From Chiloscyllium plagiosum (Eukaryota): 62,000 nt of DNA. The stretch spans positions 8,131,082 to 8,193,081 of the forward strand of contig NC_057755.1 in assembly GCF_004010195.1 (NCBI RefSeq), given 5' to 3'. The position numbers were made by a program, and so were the translations under genes. A model generated the notes under the pieces. The model worked only from the letters and a program-made list of their open reading frames with translations. It searched no databases and had not been told where the DNA came from. Below, piece by piece: positions 8,241 to 60,806 of this stretch (position 1 is its first letter; every line of letters starts with the position of its first letter).

Positions 8241-9106
8241 TTACTTCATTAGTTGTTGCCCTGCATTCCTGAACTTCGCTCTGAACTTAGGTAGAGTAAT
8301 TGCATAAAAAAATGTGTTCGTGCTGCAGCTGATATCTTTGAGCAAGTCCCCGACTTGTATAGCAATATTGCCCTGCCCTAGATTTATTCCATTAATCTTA
8401 TAATATAAGAAGTTTGTACCATACACTAACCACAGAAGTAGAAAGCTGACGGATATGGTAAAGAGGGAAATCACCGAATTCCTTCGGTTCTTCACGTCTG
8501 TGTCTTTCTGACCCTCTTCATTTCTCGGACTCCTCAGCCTCTTGCTGAGTCGACTGGCCACGAAAATGTGCCTGACCGTTATCATATTCATCAAAAGAAT
8601 TAACACAAACGGAATGAAAGGTGTTAAAATATTATCTAACCACTGAAATCCAAGCCACTTGAGATCAGAAAAGTAGCTTGATTTTGTTCTGCAGTACATG
8701 GGAACATTGTCAATTATAGTTAAATGTTGAAACCGAAAAAAGAAGGGAATGTTTTTTGAACAGAACAGAATGACAGTTACAGCGAGAGCCACAGCCAAGG
8801 CTTTCTCTGTCCAATATTTTCTCTTCAGTTTCTGGCAGCAAATGACCACAAATCGATCAAAGGAGAAAAGGACGGTGAACCATACAGAACAGTCTGTGGC
8901 TGCATGAGCGAGAACAAAGACAGCACTGCACACAGATGTGATGTCCAGTGAGCTCCTTGGGAGGTGGTAGTTTTTGAATTCCCACAGTATGAGGTGAATC
9001 AGAATGAACAGAAGATCCGCTATTGCCATGGCCACCAGGCATCGTGTTGTGCAATTGGAGAGGTCACACTTTCCACGTGCGAGAACCAAAATCACTATGG
9101 AATTAA
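8241..9106 (-). CDS. GPR139/GPR142-like class A GPCR, unit A, exon 2 (TM1 C-terminal half to stop)
   Basis: Open frame with 7TM pattern: VN..VILVLARGKCDLS, LVAMAIADLL, CSVWFTVLFSFDRFVVICC, PFIPFVLILLMN, CSTNTFFY. Acceptor ctctttcAG|TT at 9107/9106, phase 1. Confidence 0.9.
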
Positions 9107-10149
9107 CTGAAAGAGATATGAAGTAAATAAAACAAAACACAAAAAAATTAGTAAAATATTTTCAGTGTCTGATCAGAAAGCAGTAGACGATTTCAGCTTC
9201 TAAATGGATTAGTTTGGACGGGTCTCAGGTCAAATGTAAAAATGACTGCTCTGAACCTGACATATTTCGAAGCTGCTCACTCCGAACTTTATGTAAGTGG
9301 GGACGGGGAATTGACAGATGACAAGGGCGTGCAGGTCTAAAGTGAAAGTTGTGAGTTTCAGAGGGTATTTGGGGAAAGGGCTTTCACCAGATGCTAATGG
9401 ATTCCTGGAATGTGTTGTTTGGGAGGGCAGTTGAAGTAGAAAATCTAAAAATTTGAAGAAGTCCTTGGATGAGCAGTTAGAATCGCTTTTCAGCACAGTT
9501 TTATCTGAAGGAGTGTTACTGGAACAAAACATTAACTCAATCTTCTCCCTCCTGATGCGACGACACTGGCCAGCTTTCACTGGTAATTTTTGTTTATCTT
9601 TGCTATGTTTCATTAAGGCTGTAAATATTGTTTTTTTCTGCTTTTAGAGTTTAACTCTGGCCGGCTGGTGTTCAATAACTCGTAAAAGGAGTTGTCCATT
9701 CAGCCCTTTGGGCCTGCTCTGTCATTTGACATTGTGGTAGGTGCTTCTCAACACCAGTGCTTGTTCTCTCTCCATTCCCTTTGGTGCCCTCAAGTCACCA
9801 AACGTATCTGTCGTATACCCCAGAAACCTCACTCAGAGTATGGGAGACAGAAAGACAGACAGAGTTGGAATATTTGAGACTAAAAACTTTATCTCTTTTT
9901 CCATCGCTGTACCACCAGGGTATGCAACAACCTGATGGTACTGTGCTGTAAATCGCAATCTGTTTGATGTCAGCTACCGAACACACTGACAGTACTCTTA
10001 CGTTAGTTGTCTTGCCATGAGATCAGTTTCTCGTCAGCAATGTCGAACATAGCAGTTTACCAATGTACTCTGGAAATGTGCAGTCAACATACACAGTCTG
10101 CATTATTGGCTGCAGTTGCAAATACAAATAGGACGGCACCAAATGCCGT

Positions 10150-11125
10150 GCAATCATATAGAATCATACAACAATTCTGTACAACTCATCCATGCCCAAC
10201 AGATACTCTATATTGATGTCGTCCAATTTGCCAACATTGATCTGTATCCTATGTATGTATCTAACCAGATGCTTTTTCAATATTGTAATTGTACCAGCCT
10301 CCATCAGATCCTCTGGTAGCTCATGCGATTAATGCATCATCCTATGAATGACAACTTTGCCCCTCAGGTTACTTTTAAATCTTTATCCTCTCAACTTAAA
10401 ACTCTGTGCTCGAGTTTTCGACTCTCTCCATCAAGAAAAATAATAATTGGATATTCACCCTATCCACGCCCCTCGTGAATTTATAAATCTCCATAAAGTC
10501 AACTCTCAACCTCCAAAGCACCAGGCAAAATAGCGTCGGTCTAGTCAGCCTCTCTCGAAAGCTCAAAGCCTTCAATTCTGGTAGTAGCTCTTTCAATCTT
10601 CTGTGAACTGAATTAAGTTTAATTTATCATTACAATAGTAGTGAGACCAGAACACAATGCATCATTCTAAAAGTGACCTCACTAATGTCTTATACAGCTG
10701 CAACATGACGACCCAACCCCTCTATTCAGTGCACTCCGAATGCAGGTGATCGTGCCAAACACCATGTTTACTATCCTGTCTACTTGCAGCCTGCAATGCA
10801 CCAGTTTTATCGGAAACGCTCCCCAATGCCCGAACATAAACTGTATCAGTCCTGTCCTGCTTTACCTAACCAAATTGCAACAGTTTACATCTATCTGGAA
10901 TAAACTCCGTCTGCAAATTCTCAGTCCAATGCTGATCTGATCAAGATACAACTTTGCTCTGAAGTAACCTTCTGTAAAATCCACTACAACACCTATTTTG
11001 ATGTCATCCGGAAATTTGTAAACCATAGCTGCTATATACAGATTGAAACCATTTCTAAGAATGATGAAAAACATTGGAACTAGCATTCCAATGCTGCTGG
11101 TCACAGGCATCCAGATGGAAAACAA
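10150..11125 (-). mobile_element. Degraded CR1 LINE 3' part (RT C-terminus and tail), within the unit A intron
   Basis: KFPDDIKIGVVVD and LSFRERL..RLRVDFMEIYKFTRGVDRV in the ORF track. Confidence 0.8.
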
Positions 11126-11239
11126 CGATTGAAATCATAATTTGCATTATTTCCAACATTCCCAAAGTTGTGAAATGTCTCAGCACGTTTTAGAATTGGC
11201 TCTATTTAGGAAGGAAGGGGGGCAGCTTGCAATACATTA

Positions 11240-11480: not shown

Positions 11481-12359
11481 AACACCACGGTCCTCATTAA
11501 AGTGAAAATAATATGCACATTGACAAGGGCGCAGTCTATCAATTTTTTCAAAAGGCTGATTTTCTGTGAGACTCCTTTGAAAACCAAGACCAAAATGGAA
11601 TCAAAGTATTTGCGAACTCAGGGGAACAGGTTCACAAATATGTAAAATAGTGTTAACAGGGCAACAAAACCAAAACATAGCAAAATTAAGGCAATTAGAG
11701 TCTATTTACAGAAGGCAATTGAAATACAAAGAGTTAATATTCCTCTGCAATGGAGTCTTTGTGTGTGCACGTTTAGTTTACCAGATGTAGTTCTGGATAT
11801 CATACCACAACAACATGAGTAAATACGCGAGACTACATGTAATAATACGATGGAGAATGATAACTAAGCTGAGAAACATTTGTTTCATTGTTCATGGTCA
11901 AAGCCACTAACTAAACTCTCACTGTAAATATAATGGTTAACGTCAGAGACACAGAGAAGCGCACTGGTTAATTACTCAGAAAAGCGGAACAAAACCCACC
12001 TGAAATGTCATTGTCCTTACTAGATTTAAATTCCACACTTTAAATCACACAATTCCAAAGTGATTACTTTAATGAATTCGATCGAAACTCTCAGCGTCTC
12101 CAAACAAAATGAAGATTTTCGAAGTTTCCAGAAAGAAGTAAATTATTTACAACAAAATTTCAATTCGTTAAATATTTTGTGGGGACTCTACGATGTTGGG
12201 CATTGTGGAGGGAAATTGGAAAATGAGCCTAAATAACCGACTGTCTGCCCCTCTGTGAGGTTGGTCGCAACATGCCCATGTATCATTGCCAGTGGGAGAG
12301 TGAAAACGCAGAGAATCCTCAGGCATATTCACAAGCGTTCACTGGTACAAGACACTTAC

Positions 12360-12426
12360 CAGGAATTGTTACGATCGGAAGGATTACATAAAATAATTTC
12401 CGTGCATGATGAATTGAGAAACCCAT
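12360..12426 (-). CDS. GPR139-like GPCR unit A, exon 1 (MGFSIHHARKLFYVILPIVTIP+G)
   Basis: ATG at 12426, 67 nt, donor CCTG|GTAAGT. Phase 1 joins in frame to exon 2 and gives 310 aa. Paralogous 67-nt exons occur twice more. Confidence 0.85.
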
Positions 12427-13632
12427 TTTCTCCACGAATCCCTTTGTGCAGGCAATCTCTCTGTACGAAATGCCGAGGCATTATATGCCCAAACGCTTTC
12501 ATTTAGAACTGATGCATCTCCTGGGGACAGTCACGTCATTCAATTGTATTGATGCAGAGTTTGAGAAAACAGCTGACGACATTGAGATAACCCGAAGTTG
12601 CGACAGAACATGTTTCGAACTGAGGTTTACTGGATGATGCAAATCTCAATCGGACAATATCAAATATGGGAAAATACATCTTTGGTACTCAAAACTCAGG
12701 TGCCTAAAGTTCAACTCTCCCTTATTTACAATATTGTCCTTCCCTTGACTTTGACAAATTACGAATCGAACTAAGGTTGCTCAGTATCTCTCTGAGCGCT
12801 GTAGTCCTCAACACTGGCATGTGGCTTATCGATTTAGCAGCGGCTGTTCTGTGAAGAGATAATATTGTTTAATTGAGATGATGCATTGTCTGTGAAAACA
12901 AAATTAATATCACAATAGAATTCCTTGCTGTACACAATTGCGTCTCGATGCACAAATTAAAACAAAACTTTAATCAAGTCATATAACTCACTGAAAATAT
13001 ACTCTTCACAGTTGCATAAGCTTCAATAAATACAGATTCCCCTGCAAATTGAAACAGTTCTGGCGATTTTTCAGAGCTGACTCCTGGAATCACACACAAG
13101 CTGTACAGCAGCAGATGTGAGTTAATTTTTTTCGGTTCCCTACAGTATTATGGACATGTTCAGTGAAGAAAACTAAAACAACTGACCGATGAAGTGATGG
13201 GGTTGTGTGAATGGACATGGAGAGATGAGGCCAGGGAGGGATTTACAGTGGCAAGGATGCAGGAATGTAAAAAAACAGTATTGTTTAAGCTCGAGTCAAA
13301 TTTGTTAGCGAGCCCAAGTAGTGTTGGGGAACCGGGATTAGTGTCACAATTGGTAAGCTGCAGAAAACATAAAATGTGAATCAACATGTGTTTTTCATCT
13401 TTTCAAGGGGGGAGTTAGTGGGTGCCACGAGGAATATTAATCGAAACAAAACTATTTATAATTTCAGTCAATGACTGAAATGATGTGATCATATGTTTCA
13501 TTTTCTGAGAACAGACCATTAGATGAGACAGTAAAATAGAAGGACGGCACAGAAATCTTGAAAGTGGAGATACAGGTTCAGTGATTACGTGAGAAAAAAA
13601 TAATCTGTGCAACGTGAGATGGAGAAGTGATC

Positions 13633-14954: not shown

Positions 14955-14956
<2 letters not shown>

Positions 14957-15003
<47 letters not shown>
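14957..15003. repeat. (CA)n microsatellite
   Basis: Perfect CA run. Confidence 0.95.
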
Positions 15004-15005
<2 letters not shown>

Positions 15006-17593
15006 AGGAGTCGTTGACAAAATGTAGAGATCTTCAAGGAGTAGGTCATTTATTTGCAAACAAAAAACCGTGATGCTCAGAAAGCAATTTTGAATGCCCT
15101 CGAACCTCAGGGTCCATGACTCTTTATACGGTTTTTATCATGTTTTGTTAGTTTATCAGCATGCCTAACTGTGTTAATCAAATTACCTCATCCCAGTTAT
15201 ACAATAAACCGATGATGTCAGTTCCCATTATCTCTCTACTTCTGCCACTATATTTTTCCTACATTCTTCTTAATATTATTCTAATGTCACCATTAGATAT
15301 CTTACTGTCAAGGGCCTCAAGCAGGTTGAGTCTGCCTTAATCTTACTCTGATAATCGGTGTAGGAACATTCCACTATTCTTATCCCAACCTGCCATAATG
15401 ACCTTTTAACTAATGTTGCATTCCACAGACCCCTTGTAACCAATCGCCAGATTTCTTAATGCTTTATACGTTCCCATGCTTCCATGCTCTTCATTGTCCA
15501 TAACACACACAAACGCGCGCACACACACACGCACACACACATAACACAGACACACACACACATAACACACACACTCGTATCTGTGTATATGCACAACATC
15601 AGGATCAGTTCAATGTTATCTGTACTTTACCCATTAAATCTGAAATTATGTATCTGCTGTCACATTTTTATGAGCCTGAACATGCACAATTTGTAAATTA
15701 AAATTCTGTAAACTAAGTCTCATATTTTCGTCTTTAATTCATTTCAAAAACGTAAGAGCATTGTGATCAATGTACACGTCTGTTTCAAGACTTTGTTCAT
15801 CATATAACTATTAAAATGTTTTAATGCCTGTACCAAGCTCAACCATTCTGTTTCCATGATAGACTACTTTCTCTGGTGGGTGTTAAGTTTCTTTGAAAAG
15901 TAGCAGATTGACCATTCAATTCCATTATCATCTTCCTGTAGCTCCAACTGTATATCGTTAGCATAGACTGCAACTTTGAACATTATTTTTTTAAAGTGCT
16001 GTAGCTAAAGCAGGTGCCGTGTTTAATACTGCTTTCAAAATCTGAAATTCCTCCTGGCATTGTTCTGTCCATCTACATTTTTCATTCTTCTTTCGTGAAT
16101 CTGTTAGGGGTGACACCACACTACTGAGGTTTGGATCAATCTTCTGGCAGAATCCGCTTATTCCCAAAAATCGAAGTATATCTTTCATTGAGGATGGTCT
16201 TGGAATTTCTTCAATGGCCTTTGTGTTCACGTTTTATAGTGGTCAGCCTTCCGTGGCCTATGTTATGCCCTAAGAACATCATCTCTGCCTTCCGAAATGC
16301 TGTTTCCTTTAAGTTTACTCCAGTGTTGCCTGGATTATCGTTCAAAGTGATCTGCTGACTTTACCACGTGATATTTCTATCAATCACTAAAGATCAAAAC
16401 ATCATCCAGGTAAAATGCACAGTATGTTAACCCAGCGACAGCTGTGTTCCCAAGTCTTTGGAAGGTGACAGGTGTGTTCTTCACTCTAAAATTTATGACT
16501 TTGACGTAATATGGCAAATTTGGGGTTACAAATGCTGAAACTTCTTTCGCTTTCTCTGATCAAGGTACCTGCCTGTAACCACAGATTTTGTGATGTAAGT
16601 GGCTTGTCCAAATTTATCCATACAGCCCTCTAATCTTGGTATCAGGTATAACTCCGATTTTGTTATAGCGTTCACCTTCTGATGCGGCACAACAACTTTT
16701 TGTGGACATTATTAGGGAAATGCAAGAACGACAGAGGCTTGGGAGCCCAGGTCCATTTAAGTGCAGCACAGATTTTTGATAAAACAAAGCTGATTAACAA
16801 TGGCTAAAAGATGAGGGCGTGAAATTAACTTTAGAAAGATCTGAGGGATTACATTTTTGAAGACAAAAGTGGAAATTGATGGCATGGCTGCACAAGAAAG
16901 GCTTCTTGTATATAGACCACGCAACATTCTTGTGTCCCATTAAGTTTGGGACCTAATACGACTGCTGAACTCTGACTTGGTTTGATGATCCCTTCACTGA
17001 GCATCAAATCGACTTCCTGCTGGACAGCTCTGCTTTTGAAAGGATTAGATCGATAGGGGTGATGGTTTACTGGAATAATAGTCCGTAATGCAATCTCATG
17101 CACAATAGTAATAGCCGTCGCCATCTTGTTCCTGCAAGTGTAGTCATATCTCTGCAACAAACCATTCAACTCTTTTCTTTGGTCCTGAGACAGATATTTC
17201 ACGAACTTACCCAAATCCTCAAGGGCGTCCTTATTATTTAAATTATTTTGATAGTAACTAGCACGTGTTTCTCCATTTCCCTGTCTCTATCATAGTAAAG
17301 ATTCAACATATCCAAATGACAAACACGATACAGTTTTTCGTTTTGGTCCAGCATTTTACTAGATAGTTTTCTGACTCCGTTTGACAGGGACTAGTGATCA
17401 TAGCTTTGATGGGATCTCCTGAGACTGGTAAAAATAGTAATACGTCATCCCACAGAAAAACATCCGAATTTTAGCGTTTTATCTGCCATCTGCTTCATTC
17501 TATTCTGTACCCTCTTCAGGTGCGAAATCAAATATCAGTTTTAGTCTTTCCCTCACCTCCAATGCACAATACAAGTGTGAGATATCCAACCTT

Positions 17594-23400: not shown

Positions 23401-25270
23401 CTGGAGAAATTTCAAAAACTGTACTTTTGTCAAGGTTCGTTCCACAATAATCTGTGCAGTAATCTGAGCTGTTCAGGCTGTTTTCCTGGATGCAGGCCAA
23501 GAAAATGTTGATCAGGTTTTTAGGACAAACAAAGGTGCTCTTTGCTCTACCAGAAATTTCTTGCGACTCTAGATCAAGGAGTTGGCTTCGAAATCGTATA
23601 GCTAACTATCACAAATTTCAGGTCTATATGTTCAGGGATGCAATAAAGCTCGGACAGCCGCAACCAAAGCAGAATATGAAAAGACCAACAGCTGAGTTCT
23701 TTGTGTTGAAGATAAATGGACGTCCGTTCAGGTAACTAACCTCCAGAGGCTTTAATTATGTGTCCACTTAATCTTGAGCAAGTCAGTAATGCTTTTGCTT
23801 TGTTTGCTGGATGCCATGAATCTTCATTTCATTTTTGTTTCATCATATGTGACTGCAAAGAAACAAAGTACTTCAGCGCCAACTTACAGATGTGATTTCT
23901 TAATTGAATAAAGCATATATTGAAGTTAAAGAAAACAACAGTGTCTCAGCCATCGCTTTTAAGAGAAATTAGGAGCTTTACCTGATCCAAAGAAGAGATA
24001 GATAAAATGGTGAGAAAAAAATTCAAGTCTGTATTCTTGGTGCAGTTCAGAATTCAAGATAAAAAGGACTAAAATGTTGGTCAAGACTGGAAAAAAATCT
24101 AACATGAAAACAAAAGTGTTGGGTATATATATAAAAAAAGTGACTGTAAAGGTTTCCAACGATATTTGAAAAAAAAAAATTCTATGATTTCTTATGTCAA
24201 ATGCGAATCTCTTAAAATCAGATATGAGTAAAATTGTAACTGGAAAGGACAAAGGAAATGGTCGAAAAAAAATTAACATACATTGCGGTTTTCTCTTCAC
24301 AAACATTGTGAATTTCAATAATGTTGTGTAGCCAAGGCATCTGTTAGAGGGTATAATTCACCAAAATCACTTCATTAAAAATATATATATTTTGAGGAAA
24401 TTGATGAGTTTAAATGATGACAAAACCTCCCGAGTGTGATAACTCCCAACACAAAAGTACTAAGAATGCTGCTGGAGAAAATATTGGATCAAATGATCAC
24501 CTTCCAAAATGCTGCAGCCACTGGAGAAATTCCTATGACAAGGAGGGTAGTAAGAGGAAGCGCTCTATTGAAAAACAGATGGAAAAAAGAGAATGACAGA
24601 ACATGTATCCTAATAGTAGTGGCAAATGCTCGAGTCTGTGGTTAAAATCAGGAAAGCAAGAAAATGATTAGATAGAAAGAGAAATACATTACACTCACAG
24701 CAAAACCACCTCCCACCTCCCCACTCACCATTTACACTCAATCCCTCGCACTCAGAGTCGTACTGAAGTATGGGAACACACATATACACTGATATATTAA
24801 TGAACCCACATCTTCCTACTCACAGACGGAAGTTCAGTCACAATGAGCTCAGCTGCAAGGAACAAAAGCTTATTCATGCACAAACCCATTTGCCAGTATG
24901 TAAAAGCATTTTGTTTAATCTGTCTCAGGAGAAATACATTTAAAGTTAATTATCATCTTCAGATAAAAACCGAAACCTAATAGTTATTCACTCAAGAAAA
25001 CCAAAGTGAATACCTGACTTCATTTCACGAAAATGTTGTCCGATTGAAATGGAGATATCTAGAAGTTTGCAGAATGAAATGAAATACCGAGTGGAAAGTT
25101 CAATTGCCCAGGCAAGCTACAAAGGCATGTGTACTCTGAGACTAGATCACCGATCATTTACCTGTTTGTGAGAGTGGCTACAAATGCTCATGTCAAGTTG
25201 TCAATTGCAGAGTGAAACCGCAGGGAATCCTCAGACAGATTTACACAAATTCAATGATGCAACCAATCAC

Positions 25271-25337
25271 CAGGAATTGTTACAATCAGAAGGACTGTGT
25301 AAAATATATTTTGTGCATTCTGAATTGGAAGATCTAT
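25271..25337 (-). pseudogene. GPR139-like unit B orphan exon 1 (start codon mutated to ATA)
   Basis: 67 nt reading (I)DLPIQNAQNIFYTVLLIVTIP+G|GTGATT, paralogous to 12360-12426 and 46854-46920. No cognate exon 2 was found. Confidence 0.8.
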
Positions 25338-25744
25338 TTTCTGCACGAATTGTTTTGTTCAGGCAATCTATCTCTGTAAGTATAAATGAGGTAAATATTT
25401 CCCAAAGCATTTCCTTTGTACTTGCTCTCATTGACTTGGGAACATTCACAGTGCACTCCAATTGATTTTCAAGAATTTGAACAAACAAATGATGACAGTC
25501 AGCTAAATCGCAGTTGTGACAGAACATTTTCTTCGAAATTTATTGGATTATACGAATCTCATTCGATTAATAAAATCATTGAAAATGCATTTACACCACC
25601 ATTGATACCGAACACCATCCACCCCATGTTGAGGTCTCATTTTTTTTTATATATCGTCCTTTTCTTGACTCTTACAGTTTGGGAACAATAATCTGGTTCT
25701 TTAGTTTCTCTCTGAGAAGTGTTTTTCTCAACAAAGGCTCTGTT

Positions 25745-26500
25745 TAATAGTGTTAAAATCACACACAACACAAGGCTTATTTGCAAGTTTCAGCTGTCAA
25801 GGCGTTGCTCCTTCATCAGGTAACGAGTGGGGCAAAATATAACAATATCATGCAACTGAAACATTGTATTGAATAAACCTGAATTTCTATTAAGTCTTTC
25901 ATCTTTTAGTATGGGTTTCAGGTTTGAATTTTTAATATGTGAATCCTAGAATTTCTTTTTCATATTCTCGACATAACTTAAGTCTTTATTTAAAAAGTAA
26001 CATCTCAGCTCAGACAATACATTAAAGGTGTGAGGTCATAGTCTGTCTGTATTCCAATCTTGAGCCAGAACACTTCCTTTGCCAAAGTAGCAATTTATAA
26101 AATGTTATATGCATTGACTGGCTGTGTGTGTGCGCGCGCATGTGTGAGAGAGAAAATTAGTGAATGTGACAGCGTATGTGTGATGTGTGAGTATGCGTGA
26201 GACTGAGCGCTTGCATGCGTGTATGCTTGGTTGAGTGTGTACGTGACCATGGCAGAGTATAAGCCTGTGAGAGGGTGTGTGCGTGGGTGTGAGTGATTTG
26301 TTAAATATTTCGTTTCAATAGAATGACACTGAGATCATTTGCTTTAAATTCTGTGTCTTATGATCCTGCACCACGAGTTACCTGCTGAAAGAGCACCGCT
26401 ATGAAAGCTAATGCTTCCAAATAAATCTGTTAGATGACAACCCGGTGTTGTGGGATTTTAATCTTGTCCAGCCCAGTCCAACACGGGCAGCTTCACATCC
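25745..26500. mobile_element. Non-autonomous Penelope-derived element with inverted termini
   Basis: Starts gttaaaatcacac..ctccttcatcagg and ends cctgctgaa..gaaagcta..tgtccagcccagtccaacac. Same family as 47335-48190 and 61672-61878. Confidence 0.65.
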
Positions 26501-26896
26501 AGTTTAACAGGGGTTTCTGTAAAGCGATGTCAGTTGGTTATTTTAGATGAGACATTGTAGGATTTAACAAATCCAACAGTGCAATAGAATTCCCCACGTT
26601 TTAAGTAATACACTAAAATACATCCTCAATGATTTCATAAGATCCACTTAATGCCGTTCCTCCTACCAGGATGAAAAGGAAATGGTTCAGAGCTAACTCT
26701 GGGATACACAGCAGGAGAGGGATTGAAACATTCTCTGTTGTCTGTAGTGTACTGGACATGAACAAAGGCTGATGGTGAGATACAAACAATATGTACAGAG
26801 GCAGGCTGGATTGACTATATCTTGATTAGCTCCAATGTATTGGACATTTGCAGTAATTAAAGCTCACAGAACTGGCTGAAGATGGGATGGGACTTA

Positions 26897-34000: not shown

Positions 34001-34879
34001 CTCTTCTGATTTTTTTTCTTTTATCTCAACAATTCTTGTCATGAATGAACACAAACTTTTCACTCAAAGTTAATATAATTGAATACATCTCTCATTTCCG
34101 TCTCATTAGCATTGATATATACATTCACCCAGCTTCAGTATATTCCAAGGGCAAAAAGAAATGACTCAAAGTTAAAAGTGAAATGAACGTTGGGTGGTTT
34201 CCTCCAGATCAGATTCCAGATTTTTCTAACAAATCTTTGACGCTGCATTAATACCATGCTGATTTGGAAACAACCAGAAAGAAACAAAGGTTCCTTGGTG
34301 CACAAAGCTATTAATCCACGAGCCAGTCTGCAAAGTAGACTCCTTAAAAAAATTGCTGTGGTTGCAATTGCTGTTAACTATTAACGGATGGGGGCATGTC
34401 ACGTTCGCTCTTCAATTTTTTTGTTTCAAGAATTTTAACAAACAGATGTCAAACGTGGGTTGTAACAGATTTTTTTTTGATGTTTATTGAATTGTGGAAT
34501 CTCATTCGTTCAATAACAAACATGGGAAGATGCGTATATTTTAGTATTGATACCAAACACCAACCAACACTTGACTTTGACCGTTTGGTAATTGACTACC
34601 GGTTGTTGAGTGTTTCTCTGAAAATGGCTCCCATCAACACAGGCATGCAGCTCCCTTGTTTAAAAGTGGTTGTTCCGTGAAATGAAGTTCATTTGGTTGC
34701 TTGAGACGACACAATGTATGTTTTAACTAATTCAACATAGTAATCACATTCCTTGCCTTATCGGCCTGCAGCATCACAATCCAATATCACTACTCAAACT
34801 AATACAAAACCTAAGATGAGTTAAGTAACTAACCCAATGACATAATCAATGGTTACATAAACTCCAATTAATTCAGTTC

Positions 34880-35330
34880 CTCCTGCCTGAATGAGAGCAT
34901 CAGTAGAAATGAGCTGGTGGGGACATCGGTAGAGGTAGAAACGGAGGGCGTGGCGTCCCTGGTCATGGCAGATAGAGGTGTAGAGGGATTGGAAATCCAT
35001 GGTGAAAATGAGGCATTCGGCGCCTGGCGGAGGTGGAGGGCGTGGATCTTGGCATAGAAATAGAATTGCGCAGTGTGGGGCTACCGAACTATGAGATTGG
35101 AAGATTTGGGTGGGCGATCTCCTGACGTGATGAAGTTGTGTATGGTCTGTGAGATGATGATTTGTTGATGGGATGTGAGGTCATGGTCGAGGGGGCGGAT
35201 GACGGAGGTATTTTCGAGTTCAGCGGTGTAGAGGTCTGTGCACCAAACTAGTACTGCATTCTCTTAATCCACTGGTTTGATGGTGGGGTTGGGATTGGAG
35301 CATCGAGAGTGGAGGCCTGTACGTTCTTCA
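34880..35330 (-). mobile_element. Penelope-like RT fragment
   Basis: Minus strand encodes QTIHNFITSGD..AQFYFYAKIH and LIFTMDFQSLYTSI. Confidence 0.7.
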
Positions 35331-37770: not shown

Positions 37771-40700
37771 GACAGGATTCATTTTTGAGTGCTAGTTTTC
37801 ATTGTGAGGCGGATCCTCACTAAGATACTTGTATAATAGTACAGTTGCTGTAGAAACATCAGTTCTCTTGTTTTTTTATTACACGTGAATTGTCTCCTCG
37901 TTATCATCTTCTACTCAGAGTATAAAGGAGAGGAATTGGAAAATTCGCTCCACCATGACTCTCCGAACCTTCTATCATGAGAACATATGAAACAACAGTC
38001 AATCTAGTGCATGAAGCCCACTTCTCCATTAAATAAGATCGTGGCTGCTCCTTTCGCGGACTTGGCTTCAATTATTACCGCACTCAACACAATCTGTAAT
38101 TCCTAAACTGTTCAAAAATCTATCTGTCTTTGACTCAAAACATATAACGAAATAACTTCAACTACTTTACTGGGCAGTGAATAATTTAGATTTCGTGAAG
38201 ACTTTTCTCCCAAATATCGCACTAAATCTTTTCCACTTATTTTGCGGCTTTGCCTCCGAAATCTAGTTTTTCCTACCAGTGGAATCAATCTCCGTGCATC
38301 TATCTAATCTATTCTTTTTATAATTTTAAATGTTTCCATAAGATCCCTCCTTCCTTCATTGAAATTACAAAGAGTATGTTCCCAGTGCACCCAATCTGTC
38401 CTAATAAGCCACCCAATCCAGTTCCAGTAGGTCAATTCTCAAATAAGGTAAAACGTAAAACATATCATGCTTGATAAGTTTGAAAACCCGATCTTCCCCA
38501 TTTTCCTTATAACTTTCATCCTGTTACCAATCAAGACCCTATCCATCTGTTCCTTCGAACCATCATGAGGAAGTGTAACTCGATCCGAAATTTCAATTCT
38601 CATTTCTCTCCACAGATTCTTCCAGACTTGCTAAGCATTTCCAGCAACGTTTGCTTTCGTTTCTTATTCACAATCTCCTCAGGTAATTCGGAATTAACCT
38701 ATCTACCACTGTCATAAGTGCTCACGGTGACTTGGATTCTACAGCCTTTTGTTGAAATACGTTGCACAAATTCACCTCCCTATGATTGATAAATTTCCGA
38801 CTCAATGTAATTCTAATGTGCCATCCCTTCACTCTACATGTCTCTCCGTACAGTCGAAACATCTTGTCCATTTCCACGTTATCTATCTCGACTTCACAGT
38901 ATTCTGTAAGCCTCAAAGAGATTTTCCCCATATCCTTCTGAACTCTATCGTGTGCAGACACAGAGTTAACAAATGCTCTTCACATTACAAGCTCTTCATT
39001 CCTGTGCTTCTTCTTGGAAACCTTCTCTGGGACCCCTCCAAAGCCAGGACATCTTTTCTGTCGATATGAGTCCTACAATTGCTCATAATATCCTAAATGC
39101 AGTCTGTCCAGAGCATTTTGTAAGTTCAGCAGTGCGTGTCTGCTCCTATATTCTAGTTCTCTTGTAATACATGCTAATACTGCATATACCTTCTGAACTG
39201 CCAAATGAACTGTGCACGCTAACTTTAAGGCGATCCTGAACTGCGACTCTGAAAATGGTCTCTGCTTCAGATTTTCAAAGCGTTTCCCCATTAAACAAAT
39301 GCTTTCAGTTCTATTGACATCGATCACAGCAACCTCCTCGTGTCCCTCTTCCACGATCTGAGTCCAGCATACTCCCTTTCCCCTTTTCACTTGTGTGAAT
39401 TTCAGTATAACTTTCATGGATGGAGACAGGAAATATCAAGAAACAATAAATACTGGTCGGGTTTGTCCACCAAACAGACTGGAGGCATATGGAAAGGCAA
39501 TTAACTGGATCCAAGAAGGATGCAGCTATAATCCTGATTGACTTTAATCTACGTTTTTTTTTTCAGACAAGCCGAGATCTCAATGATGCCATGGAGGACA
39601 CTTTCCTGAAATCTGGAAATGATGTTGATTTAGAGCAACATGTGGAGGAAGGAAATAGAAATCAGGATGTTCTGGATTGTTTACTTGCAATGATATAGTA
39701 ATAATTAATATTATTGTATCGGGTGCAATTGGAAGAGTGACGATAAAATGGTAGAATTAGTTACTCCAATGGAAAGTGAATGTATTGAACCTGACACGAG
39801 GTTCCTTAATTTAAATAAAGAGAACAAGGACGAGTTGGCCTTGATGAATTGGACAAACTTTCAAAAGGGGTTGTTAGTTGTTTTGGAATACTTAAGAAAT
39901 GTACACATGAAATGAAACTATTATTAGTACTCTCTGGCGCAGCAATAAATCAAGCAAGTGTCATTCAGCAGAAATGCTCAGGGCCAGAACTTTCTAACAG
40001 GCATCAATAAATCGCACGGCTAGTTTTAAGAGCACTCATTGGGAGGTCCTTCATGTACATCCTGACTCTTCACACCTCCTCATTGTTCCCTCGAGTGGCT
40101 TCAGGAACATACAGACTGTTATACGTTTACTGCTGGAATATGCCTTTGCAAAAGTAGTTTCAAGAAAGCTACAATTTTGTTTTCTTGTCGAAGTTAATTT
40201 CAAGCAGGTCCGTGACGCATGATTCTGTCCTGATGTGTGTACATATAATCTTGTGTAACAAAGTAATAGGAATGGTGTGTTTCCTGGATCGAGTAAATCT
40301 CTTTTATTTTGTTTCTTCACATGCCATTGTAATGAAGCAAAATGCTTCATCTCCTTCGCATGCATATGAAGACTTTTTTTTTACTGGATAACTTATATTT
40401 TTGAAATCAAAGAAAGAAACAGTGTCTCAGCTATAGCTTGCAGCAGAAATTAGGGATGCAACTGAATCAAATGATGAGATAGATAAAATGGTCAGAAAAC
40501 AATGTTAAGCCTAAGTTCTCGGAGCAGATCCGAATTCAGGAAAGAAAAACATGAAACTATTGGTCAAGATTGGAAAGGTCTAACGTGAGGATAAAAGTAC
40601 AGAAAGCATGACAAAAGTGACTGTAAAGATTTCCGAGGTTATGTGAAAAAAAATTGTGTTTTCAAATATAAATCCCTCAAAATCAGATTTGGGTGAAATT

Positions 40701-41267
40701 GTAACAGGAATGGACAAAGGAAGTAATAGAAAATTAAACATGTATTACGGTTCTCTCTTCAACCAAGGCCTCTAAGAAATGTTCTGTTGCCAAGGCTTCA
40801 GGAAAAGTGTTGTATTCAAGAGCATCCATTAAGTTAAAAAGGCGAAATTAATGGATTTAAATGATGCTAAATCACTTGAGTGTAATAATTCCCTATCTCA
40901 GAGTTGCTAAAGATCGTATAATGAGAAATATTGAATTCTGATGATCACCTTCGAAATTTCTGTAGGCTCTGGAACAATTCCTATGACTTGGAGGATGTTA
41001 AGAACAATCCCACGATATAAAAAGGGCTGGAGAGAGAGAAGGAAGAGAATGATGGAGCAGTTTGTCGAAAAATATTGGGCAAATTCTATATTCTGTGATT
41101 AGAAAAAGGAAACAACCTATTTAGCAAACATGAAAAGGATGAGACAGAAACAGTAATGTATCAAGGTCACACCACCAACTCCTCCTCCCTCCCAAGCACA
41201 AGACATCATGTGCACCGAGTAGTAGTGACGTATGGGAGTACGTATACACAATGATATATTAATACTT

Positions 41268-43182: not shown

Positions 43183-44045
43183 TTACTTGACCATTTGTTG
43201 CACCGCATTCTTCAACTTCTCTCTGAACTTGGACAGTGTCAATGTATACAATAATGTGTTCGTGCTGTAGCTGAAATCCTTGAACATATCTCTGACACAT
43301 GGAAACATGTTTTCTATCCAAAGTAGACCGCAGTTCCATTAATGATGTGGGATAACAAGTTTATACTATACACTAACCAGAGACTTATAAAGGTTATTAA
43401 TATAGTGAAGAGGGAGATCGCTGACTTCCTTAGGCTCTCCATCTCTGTATCTTTGTGCCTGTCTCCCTTCCTCCGACCCCTCAGCATTGTACGGACTGTG
43501 CTGGCCATTATGATATGGCTGACAGAGTGTTTGTCAATAGAATTACCATAAATGGGATGAAAGGGGTTAACATTCGATCAAAACACTTAAATCCCTGCCA
43601 CATCAGATCTGTAACATAGCTTGACTTTATATTGTAATAGCGTGGAACGTTGTTATCTTCCGAGGTTTAAACACAAAATAAAAAGGAATACATTTTGAAC
43701 AGAACAAAATGCCAGTTGTCGCGTGAGCCATGGCCAAGGCTTTCTCTGCATAATATTTCATCTTCAGTTCCTGGCAACACATCACCACAAATCGTTCAAG
43801 GAGAAATGGAAAGTGAACCAGATGGAGCAGTATGTGGCTGTACGAAGCAGGATAAAGGTAGTACTGCACACAGAGCTGATGTCCAGAACAGACGGTTCAA
43901 AATAACAGATATTGAATCACGTTAGAACGGTATCCGTGACAATGAAAAACGGATACAACAGTGCTCTAGCCAACAGACATCGCTTTGCATATTTAGACAG
44001 TCCGCATTTACCTCGTGTAAGAATCAAAAACCACCAGGAATTTAA
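43183..44045 (-). pseudogene. GPR139-like unit C exon 2, frameshifted
   Basis: Acceptor ctcttctAG|TT with a +1 frameshift before LILTRGKCGLS. Fragments ERFVVMCCQELK, RKSAISLFTILITF and STNTLLYTLTLSKFREK..VK* lie in different frames. Confidence 0.88.
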
Positions 44046-46853: not shown

Positions 46854-46920
46854 CAGGAATTGGTACAATCAGAAGGACCGTGTAAAACATTTGCTGTGCA
46901 TTCTGACTTGTAAGATCCAT
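46854..46920 (-). pseudogene. GPR139-like unit C exon 1 (MDLTSQNAQQMFYTVLLIVPIP+G)
   Basis: 67 nt, ATG at 46920, donor CCTG|GTGTGC. Belongs with the frameshifted exon 2. Confidence 0.8.
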
Positions 46921-50960: not shown

Positions 50961-50964
50961 ATGG

Positions 50965-51710: not shown

Positions 51711-53281
51711 CTGGAAGTTTAATTCTGTGTTGAACAACTACAAGTTTCTATGACTTTATAGCCGTGTTTTTGTTTGGAGTGCCAGCTTTGATTTTCGGAA
51801 GATTCTCAGTAACATATACGCTTAATGATACAGTTGCTGTAGAAATATCACCTTTTATTTGTGATTACACGTAAGGTATGTGGACAGAAACAGATTTGAA
51901 GAAAACATTAATATCTTCACCGACTCGAGACCGAGAACTTGAAGACACAACACAACTTAGGGAACCAATGCATTGCATCTTGCAACATTGAATTGATTTA
52001 AGAACACATATGTTGGCAATCAGCAATATCTTCATCTTTCTCCAAAATCTCGGACGCATTTTTGCACACCGAAAGCCATCATCCTAAATACGTTTCCTAC
52101 AGAATTGGATCACATTGGATGCATTCCAATGAACTTTCGCATAGCTGGAATACTTAAGCTAATGATTTGCACGCTGGTTGCCACATGTCAGGTCGCAATC
52201 TCAAACTTAATTTAACAATTGATCGAACATTTATCAGAACAGCTAATGTTCCCCAGGCAAGCCCTATATTGTGTCGCTGGAACAACTGTTACTTTCCAAA
52301 GAACATTTCAAGGAATTACTTTCCTTTCTGATTTTGAATCATCCAGGCTTCTGATTTCCATGATACCCCTCTCTAACATTCTCCAGTTCTTGCCACTTCC
52401 TTCATTTTGCTCTCACTCAGACTCTCTCCTTTCCATCCTTGCAGCCTCCCTGTCTCCATTCCTTGCTGTCCATTTTCCAACCATTGCATATCGGAGCCGA
52501 ATTCAAACATTCACTCCGTCAACTCGTCCCAACCTTCAATCGTAGGAACATAAGAAACAGGCGCATCGTCTCTGGCCCATCAAGTCATTTCCTCTATTAA
52601 ATAATTTCACAGCTGATATTCTCCAGGACTCAACACCACTTAATATGCCGCTCAGCACAACCACTAATTCCTCCACTGTTCAATATTCTGTCTTTGACGT
52701 AAAAATATGCAACGAAGTAACCTTAAACATTTCACATGTTACTGAATACCATACATTCAAAACATGTTTGGAAGAAGTTTCCCCTGAATTAATAGCCCGA
52801 ATCTGCTCCACTTGTTTTGAGGCTATGACCCCAAATCTAGTTTCCCCAGCCAGTGTAAATAATCTCCTTGCTTCTATCTTACCTATGATTGTCATATTTT
52901 AATTTTTTCCAGAACATCCCTCGTTCATTCTTCTAAATTTCAATGAGTATGATCCCAAATGACTCAGTCTCTCCTCAAACGCCGTGCACTCTCGTGCCAG
53001 TAGTTCCTTTCTCAAATAAGGTAAATATAAACTTATCATGCTTGATAAGCTTGAAAACCCGATTTTACTTCCTTCTCCAAAGAATTCTCAATCCCGTTAA
53101 CAATGAATAATCTATGTCTCTGTCTTCCTCAGAACGTTCCTGAGGAAATGCTACATGACGTGGAGTGATAACTCTGCTCTCCTTCAGTGATACCAGACTT
53201 GCTGACGATGTCCCGTGACTTCTGCTTTTGTGTCTGATTCACCGCATCTTCATGTCTTTCTGTTTTGACCTCTCTATCTCT

Positions 53282-53590
53282 GTGGGTGGCACGGTGGCAC
53301 AGTGGTTAGCACTGCTGCCTCACAGCGCCTGAGACCCGGGTTCAATTCCCGCCTCAGGCGACTGACTGTGTGGAGTTTGCACGTTCTCCCCGTGTCTGCG
53401 TGGGTTTCCTCCGGGTGCTCCGGTTTCCTCCCACAGTCCAAAGATGTGCAGGTCAGGTGAATTGGCCATGCTAAATTGTCCGTAGTGTTAGGTAAGGGGT
53501 AAATGCAGGGGTATGGGTGGGTTGCACTTCGGCCGGTCGGTGTGGACTTGTTGGGCCGAAGGGCCTGTTTCCACACTGTAATGTAATCTA
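53282..53590 (+). mobile_element. HE1-like SINE, young copy
   Basis: Nearly identical to 41268-41588. Confidence 0.9.
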
Positions 53591-53596
53591 AAAAGA

Positions 53597-55300: not shown

Positions 55301-56658
55301 CTGTTACCATAGATCTTTTCTGCCTCTTTTGAGGGTAATCCCCCGAGGTCTAGTTTCTCCTGCCAATGGCAACAATCTGCATGTTTCTATACAGTCTATT
55401 CCCTTCATAATTTTAAATAAATCTATAACATTCATTCTTCATGCTTCTAAATTACAATTGACATGTTCCCAATCTAATCAATCTCTCCTCATACGCCAAC
55501 CACTCCAATGCCAGTTCGTCTGTTCTCAAATAAGGTAAAACGTATTTTGTAGCATGGTTGATAAGTTTGAAAATACGATTCTTCCGCCTTCTTCCTGAAA
55601 GTCTCTATCCCTTTACCAATTCAGAACCTATCTATCTCTTCCTTTAGAACCTTCCTGAGAAAGTGTCACTGGATCCTAAGTGTTGACTCTGATTTCTCTC
55701 CCCCGATGCTTCAAGACTTGCTGAACATTTGCAGCAACTTCTGCTTTTGTTTCTGATTCACAGCATCTTCGTGTATTTTGGTTATTACCCATTTATCTTT
55801 ATCATACGTGCGCTCAGTAACCTGGACTCTACAGCCTTCTGCGGCAATGAGTGTCACAAATTCACCACCCTCTGGTTGAAGAAATTCCTATTCATCGCAA
55901 TTCTAAAGTGAAGTCCCTTCACTCTGTGGCTTTGCCTTCTACCCTCGACTCTCCTATCTTTGGAACCATCTTCCCTATGTCCGGTCTATCCAAGCCACCC
56001 ATTATTGTGTAAGATTTAAGAGCTTTCCTCCTTATCCTTCTAAACTCCATGGAATGCAGACGCAAAGGATTCTATTGCTTCTCATATGATAAGCCCAACA
56101 TCCCTCGGATCTTTGTTATAAATTTTCTATAGACTCCCTCCATAGCCGTCACTTTTTCCCAGAGCTATGAGCCCGACAACTGATCATTCTGTGCAAAATG
56201 CAGTCTGTTGAGAGTCTCATATCGCTTCAGCAGTACGTCCCTGTTCGTATACGCAAGACCTCCTGTAACACGTGCTAACACTGCAAGTGCCTTCCTAACT
56301 GCCAAATGAACCACGCCCACTAACCTTAAGAGGATCCTGAACAACGAATCTGAAGATGATTTCTACTTCAGTATTCCAAAGCCTTTCCACATTTAAAATG
56401 ATTTACCTTCAGCTCCATCTACATTGCTCCCCGAAACAACCTCCTCTCAGCTACAGCTTGCACACGAAATTAGGAATACTATTGAATCCAAAGAGGGGAT
56501 GGATAAAATGATCAAAAAAAGTCAAACCTGAGCTCGAGGAGCATTTCAGAATTCAGAAAGAGAAAACAAAAAGATTGGTTAAGTTCGGAAAAATCGAACA
56601 CAAGAATAAAATGCAGGGAGCATCAACATATTACTGTGAAGCTTTCCGAGGATATGTA

Positions 56659-58326
56659 AACATAGAACATAGAACATAGAAGAATACAGCGCAGTACAGG
56701 CCCTTTGGCCCTCGATGTTGCGCCGATCCAAGCCCACCTAACCTATACTAACCCACTATCCTCCATATACCTATCCAATGCCCGCTTAAATGCCCATAAA
56801 GAAGGAGAGTCCACCACTGCTACTGGCAGGGCATTCCATGAACTTACGACTCGCTGAGTGAAGAACCTACCCCTAACTTCAGTCCTATATCTACCCCCCC
56901 TTAATTTAAAACTATGCCCCCTTGTAATACCCGACTCCATACGCGGAAAAAGGTTCACACTGTCAACCCTATCTAACCCCCTAATCATCTTGTACACCTC
57001 AATCAAGTCACCCCTAAACCTTCTTTTCTCTAATGAAAACAGCCCCAAGTGTCTCAATCTTTCCTCATACGATCTTCCTTCCATACCAGGCAACATCCTG
57101 GTAAACCTCCTCTGCACCCGTTCCAGTGCCTCCACATCCTTCCTATAGTATGGCAACCAAAACTGCACACAATATTCCAGATGCGGCCGCACCAGAGTCT
57201 TATACAACTGCATCATGACCTCAGGACTCCCGAACTCAATTCCTCTACCAATAAAAGCCAGTACGCCATATGCCTTCCTCACCGCACTATTTACCTGGGT
57301 GGCAACTTTCAGAGATCTGTGTACATGGACACCAAGATCCCTCTGCTCATCCACACTACCAAGTATCCGACCATTAGCCCAGTACACCATCTTTTTGTTA
57401 TTCTTCCCAAAGTGAATCACCTCGCACTTAGCTACATTGAATTCCATCTGCCACCTTTCTGCCCAGCTCTGCAGCTTCTCTATATCCTGCTGTAACCTGC
57501 CACATCCTTCCTCACTGTCAACAACTCCTCCGACTTTCGTATCATCCGCAAACTTGCTCACCCAACCTTCTAACCCCTCTTCCAGGTCATTTATAAAAAT
57601 GACAAACAGCAATGGTCCCAAAACAGATCCTTGCGGAACACCGCTAGTGACGGCACTCCAAGATGAACCTTTGCCATCAACTACTACCCTCTGTCTTCTT
57701 CCATCCAGCCAATTCCTAATCCAAACCTCCAACTCACCCTCAATGCCATATCTCCGTATGTTCTGCAGTAGCCTACCATGGGGAACCTTATCAAACACCT
57801 TACAAAATCCATATATACCACATCTACCGCTTTCCCCTCATCAACCTCCTTCGTCACCTTTTCAAAGAATTCAATAAGGTTTGTGAGGCACGACCTGCCC
57901 TCCACAAATCAAGGCCAATGGCTCTGCAATCTCCTCCCTTGCTTCCCAGAGAATCCTAGGATAAATGCCATCAGGCCCAGGGGACTTATCTATTTTCACC
58001 TTTTCCAGGATTTCCAACACCTCTTCTCTACATACCTTAAAGCCATCCATTCTACTTATTTGTGACTCAGTATTCACATCGACGACAATGCCCTGTTCCT
58101 GAGTAAATACTGAAGAAAAGTATTCATTCAGTGTCTCCCCAATCTCTTCCGCCTCCACACGCAACTTCCCACTACTATCCTTGACTGGGCCTATTCCTAC
58201 CCTAGTCATTCTTTTATTCCTAACATACCTATAGAAAGCCTTAGGGTTTTCCCTAATCCTACCAACTAAGGACCTTTCATGTCCCCTCCTTGCTGCTCTT
58301 AGCTCTCTCTTCAGCTCCTTCCTGGC
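56659..58326 (-). mobile_element. Young 5'-truncated CR1 LINE with a long open RT C-terminal frame (56743-57798)
   Basis: SGVPQGSVLGPLLFVIFINDL, FADDTK and a (CATAGAA)x3 tail. Confidence 0.93.
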
Positions 58327-59895
58327 TTTAAAGAAAATATTGATTTGGGATGTAAAATGCGAATCCTTAAGAACAAAAATCGGGGAAAACGTAACGGAAG
58401 GGTACAATGGAAATGGTAGAAAAATTAAACAAGTATTGCGGTTCTCTCTTCACAAATATCCTTCCAGAAGGTTTCTGTCATTAAAATGTGACACTCGTTA
58501 AGATATAAAGAAGCATTTTGGCGAAAATAATGGGTTTAAATGCTGACAAATCACCAGAGCGTCTTAATTCTCCACTGGAGAGTGCTAAAGACAGTGCTCC
58601 TGGAAATATTGTTGTCATGTTTCAAACTTCTGTCGGCAATGGAACAGTTCTTATCAATTGGAGGGTGGTAAGAGGAACCATGCCGTTTAAAAAGGGAAGG
58701 AGAGAACTCAGAAAGAGAATGATAGAGCAGTTCGCCCAACAGTAATGGGAAAATTCTCGAATCTGTGATTAATAAAAAGATGAAAAGCCCATTTAGCAAG
58801 CATTAAAAGGATTAGACAAAAACATTTTTTGATGATGAAACCAGTCGAATAGAGAAGGATGAAACAGTGTATTGAGTGGATTTGCATGACATGTAGTCTT
58901 TTGATAAAGGTTCAAAGGACAAGTTAATGGACAAATTTAATTGCGTAGATTGAACAGTAATAAATTGCCATGTATTGAGAATTGTTTTGCAGACTATACA
59001 TAGATAATGGGGATGTATTTTATTTCCCGGATGGCAGATATTAAGTAGCGTGATAGCCTGTGCCCATCTCGTCATTGTGTATATTAACAACGTAGAGGAC
59101 AGAAACAAAGACAATATTTCCAAATTGGCCAAGGACACAAACCTAAGCAGGTTTATAATTTGTAACAAGGCTTCAGGGCAATGAAGAACATTTGAGTGAG
59201 TGGCGGGTGCAGTAATAATGTGCAATAAAGTAAAGTTTGCACTTAAGTCTAAAAAGTAATGCAGGAAGTCAGAGTATTGCTAAAGTATGATATTTTGAGA
59301 AAACTAGTTGGACAAATAGATTTAGATGACCTTGTGCATGAATAGCTGATCGTGGGAATGATTCAATGAAAGTAAATAGGCAGGTGTAGTAAACAAATGG
59401 AACACAAATGATATACTGTCCTGCATTGCAAGAGATTCTGAGTTCAGAAATAAGAATGTCTTAATGTCGTGATCTAAGACATTAGCGAGACTACACCTGA
59501 AGCATTGTGTGCAGTTTTGACGTCTCTGTTCAAGAAAGGACAATGTGTCTTATAGGACCTTCAGTAGATGTTCCTTGCATTGGTACTGGGTTGGTCCATC
59601 TGAGACTTTGCTGTCTGCTTGGTCAAATCAAGATGCTGAAGGGAGGAGAGCCTGATTTACTAAGATAACTGTCAATCACAGGGCTCGGGTAGTCAATTTA
59701 GATAAACATAGCTCCATGAATGAATGCTGCTGCTTTCGATCATCAAATGAATATGCATGATTGGGTTCAGAAGTTGCCACTAATTGTCTAAAATGACATA
59801 TTTAATGTGTTCAAAAATCACTGAATGCAGCTAGATGATTTACTGAGGAGACTGTCAGACACAGGACAGAGCTTCCAGCGTGCCCGTAAATCTCT

Positions 59896-60806
59896 CTACA
59901 TGTTTTCTTTGTTTATTAATTGAACAATTGATGTCACCGGATATCTCACAGCGCACAGAACTTGCTCTCTGAACTTTGACTGTGTCACGCCATAAATAAA
60001 TGTATTTGTGCAGCAACTTAAATTCCGTAACATCCAACCAACTTCCCTAAATACATATTCAGAATCACTGTACTCCCAGGGATTTATTCTTTTCACGTTG
60101 TAATATAAGAATTCTATGACGTACACCAACCATAGAACTATGAAGGTACCAGATATGGTGAATAGTAAAATCATAGACTTTCTTCTGTTCTCCATTTCTG
60201 GATCACCGGAATTCTCTCTTCTGCTCTGACCCCTCAGTCCTTTGCGGACATGACTGGCGATTAGAATGTGTCTGACTGTCAGAACATTGAGCAACAGTAT
60301 TAAAGAGAAAGGAAACAATGGTGTTAAGACCCTGTCAAGCCAGCCAAATGCCACCCATCCAGGTTCACTATAATAGATAGGCTTTCGATAACAGAGCCGA
60401 GGAACATTGTTGACTATGATCCATGGTTGGTATGTAAAGTACTGAGGAATGTTTTTTAAACAGAATAGCACAGTGGTTGCTGCGAGAAACGCAGATGATG
60501 TTTTCTTCGTGCAGTATTTTGCTTTTAGCTTCTGACAGCAAATGGCCACAAATCTGTCAAAGGTGAAAGTGACGGTGAACCAAACAGAACAGTCTGTTGC
60601 TGCTCGGAGCAAGACATCATTAGCACTACACACAGGTGTTAGCTCGAGGAATGAGCCGGGAAAATAGTAATAATTAATACGCCATAATATAACCTCTGTG
60701 ACAATAACTAGTAGATCTGCTGTTGCCATGGCCACCAGGTAACGAGTTGTGCAGGTAGACAGGCCACACTTTCCACGAGACAGGATCACAATTCCTAGTA
60801 CGTTAA
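59896..60806 (-). CDS. GPR139/GPR142-like class A GPCR, unit D, exon 2 (exon 1 not found in window)
   Basis: Intact frame VNVLGIVILSRGKCGLSTCTTRYLVAMATADLL..TFDRFVAICC..CCTNTFIY. Acceptor ctctctcAG|TT at 60807/60806, phase 1. Confidence 0.92.

Follow-up and report, generated by a model that had tools for sequence, protein, structure and literature searches.

A stretch of 62,000 nucleotides from the bamboo shark Chiloscyllium plagiosum (NCBI RefSeq assembly GCF_004010195.1, contig NC_057755.1, positions 8,131,082 to 8,193,081 of the forward strand; hereafter the window, meaning the stretch at its full length, with coordinates counted from its first letter) carries a tandem array of genes and gene remnants for G protein-coupled receptors (GPCRs) distantly related to GPR139. 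We describe this array and the receptor family to which it belongs, and we propose that the family may be a chemosensory repertoire. Two long GPCR reading frames occur in the window, both on the minus strand and both matching Pfam 7tm_1, and tblastn added a third, broken copy. The three copies of the second exon (units A, C and D) all lie on the minus strand, and chance is excluded as an explanation of the matches (E values of 2e-93 and 2e-29). Each gene is laid out as a first coding exon of 67 nucleotides (nt) followed by a second of about 870-910 nt, the two separated by a phase-1 intron within the first transmembrane segment (TM1); three homologous 67-nt coding exon 1 sequences lie upstream of the exon-2 positions, in units A, B and C. 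A preliminary description of this DNA had proposed four co-oriented units (one intact, one exon-deleted, one frameshifted, and one with an intact exon 2) with duplicated flanks; the units are confirmed by tblastn and exon mapping, and so is the duplication of their flanks, which are 65-74% identical. The array consists of the following features:

8241..9106, minus strand: coding exon 2 of unit A, running from the end of TM1 to the stop codon, open but eroded (tblastn, Pfam, count of conserved positions)
12360..12426, minus strand: unit A coding exon 1 (ATG, 22 codons plus 1 nt, GT donor); spliced product of 310 amino acids
12427..12679, minus strand: upstream non-coding block common to A, B, C and relic X (alignment), possibly a promoter or 5' untranslated region
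23759..26710, minus strand: unit B, a pseudogene collinear with C that has lost exon 2 and most of the intron (junction at about 24801-24857; alignment, tblastn)
25271..25337, minus strand: unit B exon 1, ATG changed to ATA, donor GT kept (alignment to the other exon 1 sequences)
34027..34894, minus strand: relic unit X (the fifth), collinear with C in its upstream and intron blocks (70-80%) and without either coding exon (alignment)
38223..41152, minus strand: flank downstream of C, with a duplicate downstream of D at 55310-58824 (identity about 70-74%; alignment)
43186..44045, minus strand: unit C exon 2, a frameshifted pseudogene with stops (tblastn, alignment to A)
46854..46920, minus strand: exon 1 of unit C, still with its ATG and GT donor (alignment)
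59896..60806, minus strand: coding exon 2 of unit D, intact and unchanged at all 59 conserved positions (tblastn, Pfam, count of conserved positions)

In unit A, nucleotides 12426-12360 are joined to 9106-8241 through a GTAAGT donor and a TTTCAG acceptor. Unit B aligns with C in two collinear blocks (23759-24801 with 40236-41263, 67%; 24857-26119 with 46406-47731, 70%), about 5.1 kb present in C has gone from B, exon 2 included, and tblastn of the window found no exon 2 in this unit. The second exon of C differs from that of A by internal indels of -1, -4, -4 and +5 nt, by +1 nt beside the acceptor and by a terminal extension, and it has one or two in-frame stops among the codons aligned to A. 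Relic X, at 34027-34894, was missed by the preliminary description and keeps non-coding blocks only. Exon 1 of unit D was not found between its exon 2 and the end of the window, and a short-peptide search of the window for further copies of exon 1 returned only those of A, B and C together with chance-level matches and one unexplained weak match (13330-13374). Non-coding sequence of A that can still be aligned with B or C lies mainly around and upstream of exon 1 (12224-12679, 25137-25590, 46764-47320, 34424-34566), which hints at a constrained promoter. Part of the downstream flank recurs at 52493-53283 (matching 37927-38712 and 55327-55798), as either a local duplication or the remnant of another unit.

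All of the duplications in the window are old, since the flanks have diverged to the identities given above and synonymous divergence (dS) among the copies is 0.74-1.96; the same two measures rule out a recent expansion here. The ratio of nonsynonymous to synonymous divergence (dN/dS) is 0.23-0.43 in pairwise comparisons and 0.27 for A versus D, whose proteins are 53% identical. The reading frame of unit A is open, so the word "intact" used of it earlier holds to that extent; its product is eroded, however, at 12 of 59 positions conserved in the family (median 3 and 90th percentile 8 among 57 divergent members), and it is doubtful that A is a healthy gene. Because of these changes and of its long branch in the tree described below, unit A may be a pseudogene in the making.

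The family consists of class A (rhodopsin-like) GPCRs. The proteins of A and D match PF00001 (7tm_1) at 65 bits, the AlphaFold model (predicted local distance difference test, pLDDT, 86.4) has seven long helices and a C-terminal helix, and Foldseek aligns it with class A receptors at template modelling scores of about 0.7, NTSR1 ranking first and GPR139 second; the fold search does not separate these two and was not used for assignment. In generic numbering anchored on N1.50, D2.50, R3.50, P5.50, W6.48 and Y7.53 of the Chiloscyllium punctatum protein P0001, A and D carry N1.50, D2.50, C3.25, DRx, W6.48 and NxxxY, and among 179 family members R3.50 is retained in 99%, W6.48 in 97%, Y7.53 in 98% and C3.25 in 97%, with P6.50 in only 5%. 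Pfam domains of the olfactory receptors (OR), V1R/ORA, V2R and T2R were absent from the receptors of the window, in which PF00001 alone was found at E<=0.01.

The resemblance to GPR139 and GPR142 that had been proposed earlier holds in a wide sense. Human GPR139 is the nearest solved relative, being the best sequence match in PDB whether the query is one protein (45.8 bits) or the family profile (80.8 bits, the next match scoring 60.8), and it is the top match for every clade tested. The nearest clusters in the ESM Atlas, three in number, are those of a gene of amphibians and sturgeon, with FMRFamide-receptor-like clusters next, and we place the family, on sequence grounds, in the GPR139/142-related branch. 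The window genes appear to be a distant paralogue lineage within the GPR139 branch and not GPR139 orthologues, since the shark protein's 45.8 bits against the GPR139 chain lies below the scores of a coelacanth protein (70.4) and of amphioxus P0258 (100.8), and structural identity to human GPR139 is 22%.

For a phylogenetic tree, 311 proteins with a profile match were reduced to 215 (at least 78% profile coverage, plus outgroups), six near-duplicates being dropped. The 179-member shark set comprises the two window proteins, 120 named proteins and 57 others, 27 of which were looked up or already named (26 chondrichthyan, one unnamed) and 30 not. The IQ-TREE run used 38 sequences without any true GPR139 or GPR142, closeness to GPR139 being gauged by the PDB-chain scores. 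The shark family and the amphibian/sturgeon gene form one clade (SH-like approximate likelihood ratio test 99.5, ultrafast bootstrap 100), outside of which fall a coelacanth/teleost/frog clade, an anchovy protein and the amphioxus proteins; the window genes thus appear to belong to a separate paralogue lineage that is sister to the amphibian/sturgeon gene, and not to be copies of GPR139 or GPR142. That gene is represented by one cluster per species in 20 amphibians and one sturgeon and is apparently single-copy, and no amniote or teleost member of it was found among the 25 matches of a search with P0235. The sister gene (P0235, P0280, P0282, P0296) has no name beyond the label 'probable GPR139', its pocket is nearly invariant from frogs to sturgeon, and in amphibians it has three of the four residues of the GPR139 ligand site. 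Amphioxus has its own small set of GPR139-like paralogues (P0258, P0303-P0308), two of them on contigs of equal length, which suggests a separate small tandem duplication.

Activation of GPR139 requires F3x33, H5x43, W6x48 and N7x38 (PMC5430874). At these four positions D has R, D, W and W and A has H, D, W and D, only the tryptophan being kept in both; among the 179 members none matches all four residues, five match three, 32 match two, 138 match one and four match none. The carry-over of a tryptophan or phenylalanine ligand from GPR139, which L-Trp and L-Phe activate, is therefore rejected as an argument from homology, and the idea that the array holds tandem copies of GPR139 itself is ruled out. 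Against the F/H/W/N of human GPR139, the amphibian gene has F, Q, W and N and amphioxus P0258 has Y, Q, W and N; compared with the shark residues, these would mean that the ancestral pocket was GPR139-like and that the shark family moved away from it. Acidic residues (Asp or Glu) are frequent at 3.37 (91% of the 179), 2.57 (69%), 5.42 (65%) and 5.39 (64%), which suggests cationic ligands for the family. Asp itself occupies 5.42 in 60% of the family, and in teleost TAARs Asp5.42 provides the non-canonical contact for amines (PMC4695389).

Outside the window the family is extensive. Unit D is 98% identical to P0001 and 88% identical to the whale shark protein P0002, and the family search matched 2531 of 3525 candidate proteins at E<=1e-3. 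The best 120 of these 2531 matches are all from elasmobranchs, nearly all of them automatically named 'probable GPR139': 72 are from the horn shark, 18 from a sawshark and 30 from eight other species. The 72 horn-shark entries among these best 120 are clusters at 90% identity spread over several long contigs; three further horn-shark proteins came from the search with P0235 and one from a separate look-up. The species has at least 75 distinct family proteins. In a library at 50% identity, 119 clusters match at E<=1e-30. Named members come from catsharks, zebra shark, skates, stingray, electric ray and Callorhinchus milii, the last of which extends the family to holocephalans, and the horn shark and the sawshark have species-specific clades. 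These counts are lower bounds, taken from the protein clusters of other species. Several database proteins (P0003, P0023, P0132, P0139, P0167/P0316) contain two partial receptor copies or an unrelated domain and are probably gene models that fuse tandem neighbours; the size of the family is further masked by the labels 'neuropeptides capa receptor-like' and 'vasopressin V2 receptor-like', wrongly given to some members.

This is apparently an undescribed family with dozens of genes per genome in cartilaginous fishes. The literature yielded no description of a shark GPR139-related expansion, most subscription journals, including some shark genome papers, lying outside the coverage, and NCBI carries only the automatic label 'probable GPR139', in agreement with the earlier epithet "unrecognised". 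In the available text of the GPR139/142 survey PMC6504862 sharks and cartilaginous fishes are mentioned 0 times, that of PMC11979771 mentions GPR139/142 0 times, and the accessible supplement files of PMC8455134 contain GPR139 0 times and GPR142 once, in an orthogroup list. A survey of tandem clusters (10.1101/2025.06.08.657570) may mark the clusters of this family.

Variation within the receptors is concentrated in the ligand pocket, for which we used 27 positions that we take to be the class A pocket. Across the family, relative site rates over TM2-7 are 1.29 in the pocket, 0.63 at the other positions of the extracellular half and 0.30 in the cytoplasmic half (p=0.0009); with TM1 included the figures are 1.29, 0.84 and 0.34 (p=0.019), and in the horn shark alone, over TM2-7, they are 1.63, 0.67 and 0.28. 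In the sister gene the same three rates over TM2-7 are 0.22, 0.74 and 0.75. Among 25 same-species sister pairs (at least 78% identity, pairs with unnamed or window sequences excluded), the pocket differs in 195 of 674 cells (29%), the rest of the extracellular half in 235 of 1324 (18%) and the cytoplasmic half in 198 of 2375 (8%). Orthologues have mostly kept their pocket: eight amphibian pairs differ in 1 of 216 pocket cells, D differs from its whale shark orthologue at 1 of 27 pocket positions and at 5 of 53 and 7 of 95 other positions, and the other shark orthologue-like pairs differ at 1 and 6 of the 27. Strings of 12 pocket residues are nearly all different in the horn shark (74 distinct in 75 proteins) versus 2 distinct in 23 sister-gene proteins, the mean identity of the two sets being alike (0.74 and 0.75), and random draws of 12 columns gave 73 distinct strings of 75 from the pocket, 56 from the other extracellular positions and 30 from the cytoplasmic half. 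In this pattern pockets change when genes duplicate and are kept when species split, and the intracellular face is conserved. Because the pocket evolves fastest, the cytoplasmic face slowest, and the pocket strings are distinct, the family very probably is a repertoire in which many ligands act on one signalling pathway; the lineage-expanded family with birth-and-death turnover that had been postulated is borne out, together with diversification of its ligand pocket, by array anatomy, family size and site rates.

We hypothesize that this repertoire is chemosensory, its copies responding to different amine-, amino-acid- or peptide-like ligands through a shared G-protein pathway, and we give this interpretation a probability of about one half. 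An ancestral single gene with a GPR139-like pocket for aromatic ligands would have been duplicated repeatedly, new copies would have changed their pocket residues, and the copies would then have been kept with fixed specificity (as D) or have died (as B, C, X and perhaps A); each copy is predicted to bind a different ligand of these kinds, and all would signal through the one pathway. A bolder and more tentative version, which we regard as possible though it is more apt to be wrong than right, is that the family is a fifth, independently evolved olfactory or chemosensory receptor family of vertebrates, derived from a GPR139-related receptor for peptide or aromatic ligands, exceeding all known olfactory receptors in some sharks and with a convergent Asp5.42 for amine odours. 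Cartilaginous fishes have been reported to possess only about 10-50 olfactory receptors in all (PMC10116579), and this scarcity, along with a relative paucity of GPCRs, has been explained as a trade-off of sensitivity over discrimination (PMC10116579, PMC8455134). A fifth family, if real, would account for how sharks can smell so keenly with a very small set of OR, TAAR and V1R genes, and the 75 or more proteins filed in one shark under 'probable GPR139' challenge the published low receptor counts. The GPR139 branch would also offer a natural experiment, in which hundreds of pocket variants can be compared with one frozen amphibian receptor that is single-copy and has a GPR139-like pocket.

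Several observations weigh against the chemosensory interpretation or against the data on which it is built. The 50 top catshark genes for 'brain & olfactory epithelium' (PMC11979771) include no GPCR, an observation compatible with sparse expression as well as with none. Olfactory neurons of sharks are described as microvillous cells of the TRPC2/Go type in which V2Rs are robustly expressed (PMC10116579), so that a receptor family is already in place in the nose. Of the units in the window D alone looks fully healthy, A being eroded and B, C and X dead, and monophyly of the chondrichthyan genes is supported moderately (72/89). Alleles, haplotigs or mispredicted genes may be present among the protein clusters; the list of 27 pocket positions follows general class A numbering and was chosen after the alignment had been inspected; amino-acid site rates do not amount to a dN/dS test for positive selection; and the shark orthologue pairs are few (three), one of them with 6 of 27 pocket positions differing. 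As for transcripts, single-cell run X5 (about 2% of the run read, one sample) gave 170 matching reads, mostly on a LINE (long interspersed nuclear element) fragment, with no clear reads of D, and run X6 (about 6% of the run read) gave no matching reads; these runs speak neither for nor against sensory expression. Run X1, which behaves like DNA, matches D and its flanks with 0-2 differences per piece and may stem from the source of the window, so that it is not independent of it. About 12 reads of X5 lie over TM3 (60528-60603), carry the letters of a paralogue from another subfamily and are mostly antisense to the coding strand; they end at a pyrimidine tract plus AG on the plus strand (60514-60528), and are possibly spliced antisense RNA across a family member.

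The family could instead serve internal surveillance, as a shark counterpart of the mammalian MRGPRs or formyl-peptide receptors (FPRs) that would detect cationic peptides and microbial or irritant molecules on leukocytes, mast-cell-like cells and skin or somatosensory neurons, a comparison that draws on the general biology of these two families. The genomic signature is alike (clusters, pseudogenes and a variable pocket), the pocket is acidic, and cartilaginous fishes are reported to be without MAS1 and its relatives (PMC8455134). The pocket of D, however, is retained between bamboo shark and whale shark, which suits a stable ligand better than a fast arms race with pathogens, and we consider a surveillance role unlikely, though worth serious attention. 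The repertoire could also have extended an ancestral GPR139/142 role in the gut, the brain or the endocrine system, its ligands being endogenous peptides or dietary amino acids and amines. This would fit the three of four GPR139 site residues kept by the sister gene, the nearest relatives (GPR139 and the FMRFamide-receptor-like clusters) and a fold like that of NTSR1 and other peptide receptors. Against it, each genome has dozens of different pockets and we know of no peptide family of that size, and the species-specific clades of horn shark and sawshark are unlike a fixed set of endogenous ligands; we judge it improbable. Mostly neutral drift of copy number in repeat-rich shark genomes, under relaxed constraint and with little functional diversification, has in its favour four of five window units dead or eroding and the scaling of tandem duplication with genome size reported for rays (10.1101/2025.06.08.657570), but it is highly improbable, since relaxation would raise rates everywhere, while here the cytoplasmic face is tighter than that of the sister gene, which is single-copy (0.30 vs 0.75), pocket positions outrun the adjoining extracellular ones, and D is still 88% identical to its whale shark orthologue.

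As a putative chemosensory repertoire, the family would work like the expansions of TAARs, FPRs or MRGPRs, although it appears to belong to none of these and not to be GPR139. With the clade III TAARs of teleosts, OR, V1R, T2R, rodent FPR and MRGPR it shares tandem clusters, pseudogenes, a variable pocket and a conserved signalling face, and with the non-classical TAARs the frequent Asp5.42; its ancestry is unrelated to theirs, lying in the peptide-receptor-like GPR139 branch, with two coding exons and a phase-1 intron in TM1. Besides the PDB match, it has in common with GPR139 and GPR142 a short N-terminus and W6.48, whereas C3.25 of the shark family aligns to Asp in GPR139, P6.50 is rare, and there are dozens of copies instead of one. 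The amphibian/sturgeon gene, its sister group, is 29% identical to D and differs in its single cluster per species and its near-invariant pocket, F/Q/W/N and P6.50 being kept in amphibians. GPR210A and GPR210B, bony-fish paralogues of GPR139/142 (Rinne et al. 2019, PMC6504862), are likewise additional non-mammalian subtypes of the group, but they are described as small sets without expansion. The coelacanth/teleost/frog clade (P0233/P0242/P0262) may be a GPR210 subtype, and it falls outside the clade of shark and amphibian genes.

The GPCR units are surrounded by LINE, SINE-like (short interspersed nuclear element) and simple repeats. Fragments of mobile elements include the following:

16849-17286 and 21484-21963, minus strand: decayed frames resembling, by eye, pol and gag remnants of long terminal repeat retrotransposons, with no Pfam match at E<=0.01
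56743-57837, minus strand: LINE-type reverse transcriptase fragment with an open frame of 364 amino acids (Pfam RVT_1)
17581-18850, 26892-27847 and 49003-50022: further LINE-type reverse transcriptase fragments

Sequence related to these LINE fragments is abundant in RNA run X5. A young pair of 313-nt repeats, 96% identical, lies at 41267-41579 and 53281-53591 and is probably a SINE; one copy adjoins the start of the deletion of unit B relative to C. A 158-nt inverted repeat (35575-35732 and 36072-36229, 89%) flanks a short frame that looks, by eye, like the GIY-YIG endonuclease end of a Penelope-type element.

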